Positions 39,001 to 51,000 of a stretch of DNA of 64,000 nt are shown piece by piece (position 1 is the stretch's first letter; every line of letters starts with the position of its first letter). The position numbers were made by a program. Origin of the DNA: an uncultured Planctomycetia bacterium (GTDB taxonomy: Bacteria > Omnitrophota > Gorgyraeia > Taenaricolales > CAZCCH01); NCBI GenBank assembly GCA_964497315.1, contig CAZCCH010000006.1, positions 11,830-75,829 on the forward strand, written 5' to 3'.

Positions 39001-42000
39001 CGAACCGCGCAGGGGTACAGAACTTAATATGTTTTGCAAAGAAAGAGGTTTTTTAAGACAATCTAAGAATCCCAGTCGGTTTGGTATGGACATGATAGAG
39101 ACGCAGGATTTTAGTGAAGCTAGCCTTGAGCGCGAGTTGGTTAGATTCAATGAAAAAAAACGCAGCATGCAATTTCAAAAATATATGTTTTTTTGTATGC
39201 AGCATCCGCTGTTTATAACACGTACATTATTCAACTATAAAAAGCTCTGCAAAGAAAACGGCACTTGCAATCATTCAATAGATATAAAAACATTTCTCAA
39301 GGATATTTTAAAATACAGAAACTTTTCTATCAGCAAGCATGTAGGTGCATATTTAGAAAAAGAAGGGGGCAAAGAATAAATAATGGGGTTTTTGCGTAAT
39401 ATATGGACCAATGATAGGAAATTGCTTGCGGTGTTATTTCTGATAGCGCTTTGCTTTAGAATAGGCTCATATGTGGTGTTGGGTGATACGTATTTTTCAT
39501 GGGAAGAGCCAGCGAATAAAGATGCTGCGAAATGGATGGCACAGGGGAAAGGTTATGTAAATTTTAAGGGAGGACCTACATCATGGCGGCCACCAGGATA
39601 TGTCTTTTGCCTGTCTGTTATATACAGGTTATTCGGATATGGTCCTGTAGCACCAAGAATTTTTGGAGCAGTTTTAGGGGCAGGTTTATGTGTAGTGCTT
39701 TATTCTTTGTCATTGAAGATTTTCAACCAGAAACCACTGGCGGTATTTACAAGTCTATATGCAAGTTGTTACTACCACCTAGTGTGGTATAGCAATTGTA
39801 TTGAGACTGAGATGTTGTTTATGTTCGGACATGCTTTGATAATACTATTTTTATTAAAGACGCTTGAGGTTAATTCAATCTGGCCAGCTGTTGTATCTGG
39901 TATTTTATTAGGTATCTGGTCTATGGTAAAACCGATACTTTTAGTTTACCCAGCACTTATATTCCTTTGGCTTTTTTGGGTATATCGCCTTAAAAGACAT
40001 GAGGTTCCCAAGGAGAGGTATTCCTTAAGACATGTATTGTATACAACTGCGATTATTGGCATATTTATGTCGCTGGTACTTGCTCCATGGACTATAAGAA
40101 ACTATAAGGTTCACAAAGCACTCGTACCCGTAGCTACAGAAGGCGGTGCTGCAGTATATACTGGGAATAATCCTTACGCAAAGGGTAGCCATGGATTTCA
40201 GCCAATAGAGTTTACACACGTTGAGAAAGAATTTGGGGTTTCCGATAGGTGGAGTGAGATAGAAATATCCAGACGCCTTTATAGATCAGGGTTTTCTTAT
40301 ATCCGAAATAATCTGGATAAATACCCACAGATTTTGGCTAAGAGGATTATGATATTCTGGAGCCCCTTTATGAATTACCACAAGGATAGGCTCAATTATG
40401 ATTTTACCTATGCCTTTATACTTCTATTTGTGCCGTTGGGAATCTATTTTGGGTTCAGGAAGCCTCAATGGAAGCAAAAGCTTATTTTGGTTATCATAAC
40501 CGTATTGTTTATAGCAGGAATAATGGAGATAGTATTTTTTAGCTCACTTCGCTTCAGGGTTTTAATAGAGCCCTATATCATTTTATTGGGTAGCTGTGGT
40601 CTTTATTTTCTAATAAGGCAGGCTAAGTCAAGGAAAAGGATGATTTTGATCTTGAGTTTAATCTATTTGCTGAATGTGGGTATCTACATCTATTCAGATT
40701 CAATAGTTGAGTGTATAAGATATGTACTCTCCGCAGTTAATCTAAGAGATTGTCAACTTTAAAATTACTTAGGATAAGATATGAAAAAATCATTAGTTAT
40801 CATACCGACATACAATGAGAAGGAAAATGTAGCGTCTGTTTCTGAAAAGGCACTACAGGTTGATTCAGATCTTGAAATACTTTTTATCGATGACAACTCC
40901 CCAGATGGCACGGGTAAGATTTTGGATGATCTAAGCCAGAAAGAACCCAGGATACATGTGATACATAGATCCTGCCGCATGGGCTTAGGCACTGCATATG
41001 TAGAAGGTTTTAAGTATGCCATAGATAAGGGTTTTGAATATGTTTTAGAGATGGATGCTGATGGTCAGCATGACCCAAAGTATATTACTGAACTGATATC
41101 AAACTGCGATGAAAATGATCTTGTAATTGGCTCTAGATATAAAGGGGGAATAAGATTTTTTAATATAACCTTAGCCAGGATAATACTGGCAACGCTGGCC
41201 AATAAATACATAAGATTTATAACCGGAATGGATATTGCAGATAGTACTAGTGGATTAAGATGCTACAAGAGAAAAGTCTTAGAGGCTATTGATTTAGATG
41301 CTGTATGTTCCAAGGGGTTTGCTTTTCAGATAGAGATGGCATATAGGACATGGAAGAAAGGGTTTAAGATATTTGAATTACCAATAATATTTTACAACAG
41401 AGATAAGGGTACCTCTAAGATGTCAAGGCATATTGTATTTGAAGCGTTTTTTATGGTATTGCGACTGAAACTTAAGGTTAGGTAGATATATGGCAGAATT
41501 TGTATTCCTTTACCCCAAGACCGGGTTAGATGTGGGTGGAGCCGTAGCACCTCCTTTTTCATCTATGTATGCATCGGCCCTTTTGCACAAAAAGGGACAT
41601 AAAGTTCGTATTATAGATCAACGTAAAGAAGGAGACTGGAAGGAGGCATTGAAGGTTGCCTTAAAGAGCAAGCCAGTCTTTGTGGGTATAACTACTATGA
41701 CAGGCCCACAGATAAAATTTGCAATAGAGATGGCTTTGTATACAAAAGAACACAGCTCAGTTCCGATAGTATGGGGCGGACCTCACCCTACCATACTACC
41801 CCGGCAGACCTTAGAAAGCAAATATTGCGATATAGTAGTAATCAATGAAGGCGAAGAGACGGTGTTTGAGCTTGGGGAGGCCATGATAAAGAATGAATCC
41901 TTGGATGCAATAAGGGGAATCTATTACAAAGATAAAGCTAATGTCCAAATCCATGCAAACCCACCAAGGGGTTTTGTGGATGTTAACACGCTGCCTGATA

Positions 42001-48000: not shown

Positions 48001-51000
48001 TGCTAGCATTATAGACCTTACTTTTCACCATAGACATTGGCAGAAGACTCTAGCCGAAGGTATAGAAAAGCATAGACCAGACATTATAGGTGTTTCATCC
48101 AACACTATGTATATGAAGTATGTAACAACGATAATAAAAGAGGTTAAAGAAAAGTTTAATCTCCCTGTAATACTTGGAGGACATCACGCATCGATATATC
48201 CACAGCAGACCCTTGATATACCGGAATGCGACTATGTAATTGTAGGAGACGCCGAGAGGGCATTGACGCAGCTTTTAGATAAGTTATCTAAAAATGAACC
48301 ATTGGAGGATATTGAAGGCCTTTGGGCTAAACACAACGGCAGTCTCATAAAGAATCCAGGGGGTCACTTTAGACAGAACCTGGATGATCTACCTATACCC
48401 AATTGGGATTTATGGGAAGACCTTGATAAGTATTTTTATCACTTAGGGATGCTTTACATAATAGGCAGCAGGGGTTGCCCCTATAGGTGCACATACTGCG
48501 ATGCGCATGGTATAGCAAAGGCTGTTGGCGGGAGATATTTTCGTATGCGTGATCCAATAGCATACGCAAGAGAAATAGCATATCAATGGAAGAAGTACAA
48601 AGGAAGAAATTTACGCCTTGCCCAGCTGTTCGACCCGGTATTTACTATGGATTCAGCTTGGATAGATGCATTTTCTGATGAATACAGGGCGCAGGGTATA
48701 GAAAAGGAGTTTAGATACAGCGCATTCTCAAGAATAGATCACCTTGATGAGCACAAGATAAAGACCATGGCAAAATCAGGATGTGCCCTTTTAAGAGTAG
48801 GCATTGAAGCGGGTGATTCTTATATACGAAATGAGGTTTACAAAAAGAAAATTTCTGGTGATGCCATAAAAAATATCTTTAAGCTTGCAGGGGAAAACGG
48901 TATAGGCTTTACAGCATTTTATATGTTAGGAGGCCCTGCAGAAACGCCCAAGACAGTAGAAAAGACCATAAATCTGGCATACGAATTAGATGCCAATAGA
49001 TCTGCCTTCTTTATTTTTAAACCTTTTACCAAAGAGGCAGCAAAGCAGCTTATGGAGTATGGTGGTTGGATAGACCAGGATCGATGGGGCAAGGCAGATA
49101 ATATAACATTTGATGCGGTTGTACATACAAAGGAGCTTACGCCAAAACAGGTACAACTATACCAGATGAAGGCATATTTTCTTACATTTGGCAGGCGTCT
49201 TTTGAGGATGATTCGCAAACAGAAGTTAAGATATTTTACGAGGTTAATTGTGTATATGTTTAGGGGTTTAAGGGCAGGGTTAAACTTCTCATACCTTATA
49301 ACTTATTACCACATTTATGGCTATGACAATGTTGATAAATAATCAATACAAGAAGGTGTTTATTGTTCTGTTTATATTTCTTGTGGCCTTTGGCATAAGA
49401 GGGTTTTACATTGTCCAGACTGCCGACTATGTCGTTACTGCTGATGCCAAGGAATATGACAGTCTTGCGATGTCCATTGCAAGGGGCGAAGGCTTGGGTT
49501 ACAGTCCTGAGGCTGCAAAGGCCATGCGTTTTCACCCGGGACCTACTGCCCGGCGTGTGCCAGGATATCCCGTATTTATGTCGTTGATATACCTGATATT
49601 CGGACATTCTGTGGCTGCGGCTAGGATTGCGAATGCCCTCCTCGGTGCGGCGTCATGCGTCCTGATTTATTATCTGGCAGAACAGATAAAAGACAAAAGG
49701 GCCGGCCTTTTAGCCGGATATCTTGCGGCCGTTTATCCAGCATTTATTCTTATAAGATCGGGCGGAAGCGGAGACTTGGTTACGGAGACGCTTTTTATAT
49801 TTGTTCTTTTATGCTTCATGTTTTTGTTTTTAAGGTTTATAAGAAGACCCCGCATCGTGACTTCGCTCTTGGCAAGCATTGTACTCGGCGTTTTAATGCT
49901 TATAAAAAGCGCCGCAGCTTTATTCGGGCCATTTATATTTATCTGGTTTTTGTTTATCAAGGGATGGAGGCTGAAAGACCGTCTCATACGCGCCGCATTC
50001 ATTTTAGCAGTAGCCATGTTTGTAGTCATGCCGTGGGTGGTTAGAAATTATTTGATATTTGGACAACCAATTTATTCCACACAAGGAGGCTTAACTTTTT
50101 ACCTGAGCAACAATGCCGATGCAAAAGGGGCATGGGCGATTCCGCAAGGCGAGTATGACTATTATGAAGGTCTTAAGGGTAGAACCGATGAGCCGTTTGC
50201 CAATAAGGAATTGTTTTTAAGAGGTTTGGATTATGTGGGCAGCAATCTCAAGCAGATGCCTAAATTGGTGTTTATGAAAATCCTTGTGCTGTGGAATCCC
50301 TTTAATCCCGGCTACAGCATGTTTTACGGGATAATGCTATTTCTGTTTATCTTGGGATTTTTTATGCGCAAGGGGGTTTTTCAGGCCCAGGATTGGCGCT
50401 TTTTGCTTTTGCCGGTTTTATACTTTACTTTTATAGCAGCTGTGTTTCATGGCAAACCGAGGTTCAGGTTGCCGCTTGAGCCATTTCTGATAATAGCCGC
50501 ATCGGCCGTGTTGATATATCTTAAAGACAGATTAAAACGTCATGCCTTTGGGATATCTTTGGCAGTTTTGTTGGTTGTAAATGTAATTTTAAAAATTTAT
50601 TCATCGCCTATTAGTGGGTTTTTGGGGCACATTCTGGATAAATAAACAATGGCATACAAGCACAAAAAGAAGGTTTACTACACTATTGTTTTCTGCATCA
50701 TATTGATTATTGCGGTTGCCTTGAGGCTGTACGGCCTGGTGGATAGAGGGATATTCTCTTCCGAAGAAGCCAGAACGGTTCTAAAGGCCAGGGTCGGTCT
50801 TTTTGTGCCGTGGTTTTTTCAAAGACACACCTCATTTACCGAATTCGCAACTTCAAGGGGCGGAGGCATTTATTGGATTATTAACAAACCGATGGATACG
50901 TTTTTATCTATACCATTTTCTTTGATGTTTGGGTTTTACGACTATAGCGTATTTTTTATGTCTTTCTTTTTTGGCATTGCTACTATTTTACTGCTTTATC

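Follow-up and report, generated by a model that had tools for sequence, protein, structure and literature searches.

Two directly adjacent pairs of genes for cobalamin (B12)-binding radical S-adenosylmethionine (SAM) enzymes (B12-rSAMs), named here R3/R4 and R5-R6, lie within a surface-polysaccharide locus on contig CAZCCH010000006.1 of an uncultured Omnitrophota bacterium, in a 64-kb stretch of DNA that is referred to below, at its full length, as the window. Judged from their sequences, the four genes are distinct, anciently diverged and intact class-B radical SAM enzymes. R5-R6 is a conserved, co-evolving operonic pair whose gene order is kept across divergent loci, while the closest orthologues of R3 and of R4 do not keep the adjacency of these two genes. 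On balance we lean toward the reading that R3–R6 act as sequential radical tailoring enzymes on the sugar building blocks of a surface glycan. The genes of this central part of the locus are as follows (aa, amino acids; GT2, family 2 glycosyltransferase).

40781..41485, + strand: GT2a, soluble GT2 of 234 aa, DPM1/ArnC/GtrB-like (Pfam GT2, 3.5e-33), directly 5' of R3
41490..42995, + strand: R3, B12-rSAM of 501 aa (Pfam; CPFKCGYC at residue 205)
42996..44435, + strand: R4, B12-rSAM of 479 aa (Pfam; CPFNCIYC at residue 212)
44432..45418, + strand: GT2b, membrane-anchored GT2 of 328 aa (Pfam GT2, 7e-31)
45390..46520, + strand: radical SAM/SPASM enzyme of 376 aa (Radical_SAM 7.5e-18; SPASM 26.4 bits)
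46508..47893, + strand: R5, B12-rSAM of 461 aa (Pfam), first member of the conserved pair
47897..49342, + strand: R6, B12-rSAM of 481 aa (Pfam), second of the pair and the better conserved
49317..50645, + strand: GT-C membrane glycosyltransferase, PMT_2/ArnT-like, about 10 transmembrane segments (PMT_2 9e-16, plus STT3)
50649..52280, + strand: second GT-C membrane glycosyltransferase, PMT_2/PMT (PMT_2 1.7e-12, PMT 2.5e-7)

The preliminary description of this DNA had placed four B12-rSAM genes at 41490, 42996, 46508 and 47897, in two directly adjacent pairs flanking a membrane-anchored GT2 and a radical SAM/SPASM gene, and this layout held throughout. All four open reading frames (ORFs) were recognized by Pfam as B12-rSAMs, with matches to the B12-binding family PF02310 (E-values of 1e-16 to 2e-25; 60.6–89.5 bits versus a cut-off of 32.1 bits) and to Radical_SAM, PF04055 (5e-15 to 7e-26; 56–92 bits, passing the gathering score). 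The spacers are 0 bp (42995/42996) and 3 bp (47893/47897), Shine-Dalgarno-like sites precede the downstream start in both pairs, and the genes enclosed are GT2b (44432–45418) and the SPASM gene (45390–46520). The description was incomplete in its count, as the window adds four further B12-rSAMs (R1, R2, R7 and R8) to these four. Cobalamin binding by R3–R6 is predicted from PF02310 and the GG..H motif; in AprD4 and ArsL, related Rossmann domains may lack cobalamin (PMC12931638).

Pairwise identities among the eight paralogues range from 23 to 34% (R3/R4 31%, R5/R6 30%, with a maximum of 34% for R4/R5), and identities to orthologues outside the window are 50–72% for R3, 48–54% for R4, 43–57% for R5 and 50–73% for R6. 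The CxxxCxxC motif is present in 8/8 window paralogues and invariant in the families of R3 (5 sequences), R5 (23) and R6 (31), and the Rossmann GG..H and G.E motifs are kept in the orthologue sets. In a neighbour-joining tree every window protein falls among its own orthologues; the clades of R4 and R5 are sister groups, R3 is joined by R8, and R6 shows a loose grouping with R7. These results bear on a reading that the preliminary description had itself raised, in which the pairs would be recent, near-identical tandem duplicates with one copy redundant, decaying or disabled. Adjacency is the one point in its favor, and we reject it with near certainty: within-pair identity is 30–31% against 48–72% to foreign orthologues, the partners occupy separate clades, and the motifs are intact in all copies. 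By the tree, neither pair originated in a tandem duplication.

The evidence for R5-R6 as a unit comes from an R6 alignment that was used to scan metagenomes, yielding 41 loci with orthologues of 50–73% identity whose ORFs were then mapped to the window proteins. Of the 26 non-redundant loci that were informative, 19 have an R5 orthologue directly 5' of R6 on the same strand, and the count becomes 23 of 30 if partial R6 genes are taken in; the gap ranges from −10 to +13 bp. Three further loci have R5 near R6 on the opposite strand. Pairwise distances of R5 and R6 across the 19 loci and the window are correlated at r = 0.90, compared with r = 0.42 and 0.56 for the adjacent flavin adenine dinucleotide (FAD) gene, and the R5 and R6 gene trees have groupings in common. 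The R6 family is narrow: of 38,750 superfamily matches, those scoring above 300 bits make up about 18 clusters at 50% identity.

Two coupled steps would fit this pattern, and so would a heteromer. Two radical SAM subunits serve one overall reaction in systems of the CofG/CofH and HxsB/HxsC type, and R5 and R6 might similarly form one heteromeric enzyme for a single overall reaction instead of catalysing two separate steps in turn, a live possibility that we nevertheless regard as doubtful. Strict order and translational coupling (most loci have gaps of −10 to +3 bp), a distance correlation far above that of the adjacent FAD gene, retention of the pair while the gene upstream is exchanged, and naturally fused B12-rSAM polyproteins of 2–4 modules in the wider superfamily all speak for it. 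However, no R5-R6 fusion occurs among the R6-family representatives, R5 is on the opposite strand in the 3 loci mentioned above and absent near 4 R6-like genes in the sequence at hand, the cluster and Rossmann motifs are complete in both proteins, each of which is predicted to fold as a full class-B monomer, and co-inheritance in an operon would likewise raise the distance correlation. In the window R5 and R6 share a reading frame and are separated by TAG and one AAA codon (47891–47899), such that stop read-through would give a 943-aa fusion, which is probably coincidental because the orthologous spacing varies (−10 to +13 bp). A family-B DNA polymerase gene was also seen near one R5-R6 cassette (L026 3000–5702; L numbers denote individual related loci) and OrfB_IS605/Cas12f-like TnpB genes near two others, and the cassette may be located in mobile or variable regions.

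Across loci the gene 5' of R5 is of two classes, a FAD protein or a SPASM radical SAM enzyme, indicating two alternative 'heads' on the same R5-R6 'tail'. In 13 loci (L016 1174–2493, L015 13188–14498 and 11 others) the slot holds the FAD protein, mostly with a GT2a-like gene in front of it. The protein is a member of the CrtI/HpnE/amine-oxidase superfamily and passes NCBIfam NF005560 ('hypothetical protein'; 291 bits versus a 252-bit cut-off). The SPASM enzyme takes the slot in L020, L047 and the window (55–63% identity), and in L020 and L047 its orthologue is preceded by a GT2b-like gene (43–51% identity). We set aside the idea that SPASM replaces the FAD enzyme under anoxia, as nothing beyond gene position backs it and both cassette variants occur in one metagenome (L019, L020). 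The SPASM assignment of ORF 45390 stands on PF13186 (26.4 bits versus 21.5 bits); the protein carries CNARCKHC at residue 32 and C-terminal cysteines at 277, 284, 295, 333, 335 and 339 that are conserved in the L020 and L047 orthologues, the canonical seventh cysteine being not clearly identified, and it reaches none of the NCBIfam cut-offs. Among 122 ORFs within 6 kb of the R5-R6 pair in 22 loci, we counted 26 GT2 genes, 16 further radical SAM genes (10 with a B12 domain), 13 Amino_oxidase-type FAD genes, 3–4 class-I methyltransferases, 3 YdjM and 3 PMT_2 genes.

R3 and R4 behave differently. Orthologues of R4 in L010, L011 and L013 have no R3 neighbour, and those of R3 in L015, L016, L018 and L020 have no adjacent R4 orthologue. 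What recurs instead is GT2a next to R3 (adjacent orthologues of 55% and 54% identity in L015) and R4 with a GT2b-like gene, as in L011; we therefore take the R3/R4 junction as a module boundary, not a functional pair. Within the window, GT2c (55922) followed directly by R8 repeats the GT2a-R3 layout. An R7-like gene (40% identity) lies near the R4 orthologue of L010, and a looser pattern is found in the Patescibacteria locus L061, where an R3-type gene adjoins a gene of the R4/R5 clade. The preliminary description had read both tandem pairs alike, as typical of iterative or sequential tailoring or of heterodimeric enzymes. Sequential tailoring is still the best reading, but the equivalence of the two pairs did not survive, R5-R6 being conserved and R3/R4 not.

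The glycosyltransferases next to these enzymes suggest where such tailoring might take place. The best match of GT2a in the PDB is the Pyrococcus furiosus dolichol-phosphate-mannose synthase (5mlz; 7e-26), followed by ArnC and GtrB; it has no transmembrane segment, and its partial NCBIfam matches to AglJ, PpgS, PgfS and ArnC all lie below cut-off. GT2c gives full-length partial matches to AglJ, PgfS and ArnC, and GT2d is of like affinity. In GT2b the C-terminal ~80 residues (239–319) are hydrophobic, which supports the membrane anchor of the preliminary description. The GT-C genes at 49317 and 50649 are placed in their class by PMT_2 scores of 58.9 and 48.3 bits (cut-off 26.1 bits) and 7–10 hydrophobic segments. 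The same interleaving of a ~230-aa GT2, PMT_2, a small EamA-like protein and B12-rSAMs occurs in Omnitrophica (L060) and Patescibacteria (L061) loci. Several related cassettes are flanked by membrane proteins of 690–850 aa with 10–13 transmembrane segments and no Pfam family, which may be GT-C-like, a guess from topology.

From this arrangement we propose the following course of events. DPM1/ArnC-like GT2 enzymes would load sugars on polyprenyl phosphate, and the radical SAM enzymes would modify these polyprenyl-phosphate-linked sugars at the cytoplasmic face. At the [4Fe-4S] cluster of each B12-rSAM, SAM would give rise to a 5'-deoxyadenosyl radical, which would abstract hydrogen from an unactivated sugar carbon; the step that follows would most likely be C-methylation, with methylcobalamin as the methyl donor. 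R3 would be the partner of GT2a and R4 that of GT2b, while R5-R6, as an obligate unit of two enzymes, would follow a redox step carried out by the SPASM enzyme, with GT2b and the SPASM enzyme as the head here and GT2a and a FAD oxidoreductase elsewhere. The modified sugars would be flipped across the membrane and attached to the glycan outside the cytoplasm by the GT-C enzymes 49317 and 50649, following Arn/Gtr-like logic. A broader claim, which we offer tentatively and consider rather unlikely in its full extent, is that GT2, a FAD or SPASM enzyme, R5 and R6, often with an R3-type enzyme and GT-C, constitute a widespread, undescribed pathway in Omnitrophota and related uncultured-lineage loci that places radical-tailored sugars (C-methylated, deoxygenated or carbocyclic) on polyprenyl phosphate for extracytoplasmic glycosylation, with R5-R6 as a two-subunit radical enzyme and the FAD and SPASM enzymes as interchangeable redox partners.

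The chemistry was approached through family scores and predicted folds. We scored the window paralogues against the curated NCBIfam equivalogs BchE, HpnJ, ApyD, PhpK, Sden_1168, QCMT, HpnR, BzaD, ladderane-type TIGR04072 and AprD4. R4 came closest, with 240/481 bits to BchE and 228/578 bits to HpnJ, all other ratios being lower; its matches to BchE, HpnJ and ApyD are partial and fall far short of the cut-offs. For R5 the best NCBIfam match is HpnJ (176 bits), and the best partial match of R2 is the Sden_1168 P-methyltransferase (195 versus 575 bits). In sequence searches of the PDB, R4 and R5 found AprD4 (radical SAM core only) and QCMT/MgmA (9CCB), R6 found AprD4, TsrM and CysS, and R3 found OxsB (3.5e-16). 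AlphaFold2 models of R5 and R6 (predicted local distance difference test, pLDDT, 89 and 96), that of R6 having a class-B radical SAM fold, were compared by Foldseek and match TsrM, AprD4, QCMT, OxsB, CysS and TokK at TM-scores of 0.6–0.77. The best full-length structural relative of R5 is QCMT (TM-score 0.76, root-mean-square deviation 3.5 Å, 23% identity, sequence E-value 6e-25).

Methylation is plausible, and sequence or fold cannot demonstrate it. C-methyltransferases are the most represented group in the superfamily (PMC12931638), and we take C-methylation to be the most likely single chemistry, with a probability somewhat short of even. Among the top homologues of R4, 45 of 120 carry a C-terminal class-I SAM methyltransferase domain (fusions of ~700 aa, the named ones from Deltaproteobacteria/Desulfobacteraceae metagenome-assembled genomes (MAGs)); these fusions link the family to methyl-rich tailoring, and equally the radical SAM part may not methylate.

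Several observations weigh against methylating, on-carrier sugar tailoring. No window paralogue reaches any NCBIfam equivalog cut-off; AprD4 ties with QCMT for R5 (TM-scores of 0.76–0.77) and ranks high for R4 and R6; the ring-contraction enzyme OxsB is the best PDB match of R3; AprD4 is without cobalamin, and no structural feature separates non-methylating from alkylating class-B members (PMC12931638). A polyprenyl-phosphate-linked sugar may be the substrate, the basis for this being gene adjacency. GT2b is a generic GT2, PMT_2 accounts for only 3 of the 122 ORFs near R5-R6 (E <= 1e-5), a GtrA/ArnE-like flippase was not found in the window, and known members of the CrtI/HpnE superfamily, to which the FAD partner belongs, act on isoprenoids. 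Part of this evidence fits sugar tailoring of another kind, namely deoxygenation (by an AprD4-like diol dehydratase with a reductase), ring contraction or carbocycle formation (HpnJ/OxsB-like) or epimerization; deoxygenation, rearrangement and epimerization together form a serious but minority possibility. It would agree with AprD4 as top PDB sequence match for R4, R5 and R6 and OxsB for R3, with the structural tie on R5, with the HpnJ scores of R5 and R4, with a redox partner (FAD or SPASM) that always accompanies R5-R6, and with the conventional methyltransferase often fused to R4 homologues, which would supply methylation separately. The similarities are remote, though (16–23% identity and far under family cut-offs), the AprD4 sequence matches span the radical SAM core only, the Pfam B12-binding scores are solid (60–90 bits), and methylases dominate the characterized members.

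Substrates other than a glycan are unlikely because of the polysaccharide context. An isoprenoid or other membrane lipid (of hopanoid, ladderane or polyprenol type) is suggested by the superfamily of the FAD partner and its NF005560 match, by the resemblance of R4 and R5 to HpnJ, by matches of several paralogues to ladderane-type TIGR04072 (80–150 bits) and by a Cariaco Basin study that called ladderane-like clusters in Omnitrophota MAGs (PMC9902471). Yet every one of these matches is far below its cut-off, the window has no cyclase, polyprenyl synthase or fatty-acid genes, the commonest neighbours are glycosyltransferases and the array is embedded among nucleotide-sugar, Wzx, Wza and GT-C genes, which makes modification of a lipid improbable. 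Far less credible still is a cluster for maturation of a peptide made by the ribosome and modified after translation (RiPP), which we rejected: SPASM enzymes and B12-rSAMs are common RiPP maturases, and partial NCBIfam matches to ApyD and RiPP C-methyltransferase models exist, but genes for a protease, leader recognition or export are absent, the surroundings are wholly carbohydrate-related, and the intergenic gaps around the array (−29 to +18 bp) leave no room for a precursor gene.

Several characterized systems resemble R3–R6 in part. The class-B C-methyltransferases GenK, GenD1/GntE, Fms7 and MoeK5 have the same N-terminal Rossmann B12 domain and CxxxCxxC core, act on sugars and occur as several paralogues per cluster that methylate different positions (PMC12931638), whereas they serve soluble antibiotic intermediates in actinomycete secondary metabolism and the window is an Omnitrophota Wzx/Wza locus with GT-C; no orthology of the window paralogues to these four was detectable. 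In the HpnI/HpnJ system, similarly, the substrate of a B12-rSAM is a lipid-linked hexosamine that a GT2 has put in place, and the HpnJ matches to R5 and R4 are nearly full length (cut-off 577.6 bits), but HpnJ rearranges its substrate without methylating it and the window has no hopanoid genes. QCMT/MgmA, the glutamine C-methyltransferase of methyl-coenzyme M reductase (MCR), shares with R5 a minimal Rossmann plus radical SAM architecture of similar length, and differs in its protein substrate, its restriction to archaeal methanogens and its score (TIGR04014, 141 versus 360 bits). AprD4 (6FD2), the apramycin radical SAM 1,2-diol dehydratase and the top PDB sequence match of R4–R6, acts on a sugar, but it binds no cobalamin (PMC12931638), matches in the core only and has NF033070 scores of 82–119 bits against a 500-bit cut-off. 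ThnK/L/P, BotRMT1–3, PoyB/C and BzaD/E also comprise several diverged class-B enzymes per cluster with distinct steps (PMC12931638), yet none is reported as an obligate adjacent co-evolving pair and none lies in a polysaccharide locus.

In the three-component glycosylation systems ArnC/ArnD/ArnEF/ArnT, GtrA/B/C and CsbB/GtcA/YfhO, a GT2 polyprenyl-phosphate-sugar synthase is combined with GT-C. In the window, GT2a, GT2c and GT2d resemble DPMS, ArnC and GtrB and GT-C genes are present as well, but the tailoring enzymes would be radical SAM enzymes and no such flippase was identified. ArnD modifies its lipid-linked sugar before flipping, a logical precedent for tailoring on the carrier, and the parallel with ArnC/ArnD/ArnT and HpnI/HpnJ would be one of logic only. 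A further lead, a link of the methylated S-layer glycan of Kuenenia to radical SAM methylases, was dropped as PMC5088730 does not mention radical SAM.

The central genes form part of a translationally coupled locus of ~55 kb of Wzx/Wza/Wzi type that runs from ~8.8 kb to the window end, and the entire window is a single co-directional gene array. The locus encodes sugar-nucleotide enzymes (RmlA/B/D-like enzymes, 2 nucleotide-sugar dehydrogenases and several short-chain dehydrogenase/reductase epimerases or dehydratases), export and assembly proteins (Wzi, a Wza-like exporter of 999 aa, Wzz and a Wzx flippase) and glycosyltransferases (three GT4, five GT2 and five PMT_2 (GT-C) membrane proteins), together with a GFO oxidoreductase, a hexapeptide acyltransferase, a DegT aminotransferase, AsnB, a GNAT acetyltransferase, class-I methyltransferases and a carbamoyltransferase. 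The window holds 8 B12-rSAMs and 1 SPASM radical SAM enzyme, and the B12-rSAMs make up 8 of the 24 genes across 35.0–58.3 kb, a density far beyond chance. The remaining members of this array, and the glycosyltransferases beside them, are these.

35024..36493, + strand: R1, B12-rSAM, after a GFO/IDH/MocA oxidoreductase gene
37724..39379, + strand: R2, B12-rSAM, between GT4 and GT-C genes
39383..40762, + strand: GT-C-type membrane protein, PMT_2 (Pfam, transmembrane scan)
52289..53749, + strand: R7, B12-rSAM (Pfam; CPHRCAYC at residue 186)
55922..56833, + strand: GT2c, polyprenyl-phosphate-sugar synthase-like, two C-terminal transmembrane segments, directly 5' of R8
56833..58335, + strand: R8, B12-rSAM, closest window paralogue of R3 (31.5% identity over 504 aa)

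The window encodes LptD (4028–6148), indicating that the host has two membranes, and the named homologues of this LptD (32–44% identity) all come from Candidatus Omnitrophica/Omnitrophota MAGs. The window matches the metagenome contigs ENA SUTE22-1_SAMN10231903 scaffold_396 and JGI 3300009105 Ga0117905_1000413. The R4 scan of GTDB species representatives returned no relative above 34% identity, and many R3 homologues occur in Omnitrophica, Patescibacteria and DPANN. Giant metagenomic proteins of 926–2633 aa, including P0289, P0310, P0325, P0365, P0320 and P0386, consist of 2–4 complete B12-rSAM modules fused in tandem, each with CxxxCxxC and with 25–34% identity to the window paralogues. On Woesearchaeota contig L007 (8425–12611), two tandem B12-rSAMs are followed by a SPASM radical SAM enzyme (27% identity to 45390) beside RmlA/B/D-like genes, which indicates a similar triad in DPANN archaea. 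In L061 (Patescibacteria; 6938–7973), DUF4430 and DUF6580 genes lie immediately 5' of a tandem B12-rSAM pair, and these may relate to cobalamin binding or uptake.

An Rfam search of the window gave no cobalamin riboswitch and no other RNA family, tRNAs were likewise absent, and a promoter and terminator scan between genes gave no signal exceeding shuffled expectation. The only sizeable stretches free of ORFs of at least 150 aa are 7970–8803 (835 bp) and 10097–10576 (481 bp), neither of which matches Rfam; both probably serve as promoters or mark borders of the sugar-nucleotide sub-operons. Genes for two GGDEF diguanylate cyclases, one carrying a GAF domain and the other membrane-bound, lie where the array begins upstream (9–2395) and may place the polysaccharide locus under control of cyclic di-GMP. 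A NodU/CmcH-type carbamoyltransferase (6152–7969) has 66% identity to L015 17352–19226, which lies beside an R5-R6 cassette in a 372-kb contig, and this shared gene hints at O-carbamoylation within the same glycan programme. A PMT_2 GT-C gene (22274–23587) is followed by a gene for a 567-aa protein with six transmembrane segments and no Pfam match (23581–25284), and the same membrane pair occurs in Omnitrophica contig L060 (3619–4914 and 4924–6678; 37% and 35% identity), seemingly as a second conserved two-gene membrane unit.

The superfamily itself, and radical tailoring of sugars in aminoglycoside and hopanoid pathways, are already known. Cobalamin-dependent radical SAM enzymes comprise >80,000 sequences in >100 groups, the largest of them unexplored, and cell-surface polysaccharides do not figure among the substrates mentioned in a 2026 review of the superfamily (PMC12931638). 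Our search of the literature on B12-rSAMs with polysaccharide, O-antigen, polyprenyl or ArnT found no description of such a system, and the occurrence of 8 class-B enzymes in one surface-polysaccharide locus, the R5-R6 pair, the FAD/SPASM alternation and the association with polyprenyl-phosphate/GT-C glycosylation in Omnitrophota and further uncultured lineages appear, in combination, undescribed in the literature searched.

Omnitrophota, Patescibacteria and DPANN-type organisms make episymbiotic contact through their cell surfaces, and polysaccharide cassettes of Omnitrophota are reported to be hypervariable. The window and ~40 related metagenomic loci point to uncharted glycan chemistry in such organisms. 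R5-R6 with its swappable FAD or SPASM partner is a compact four-gene unit that lends itself to heterologous reconstitution, through which new sugar modifications, and perhaps a two-subunit class-B radical SAM enzyme, could come to light.

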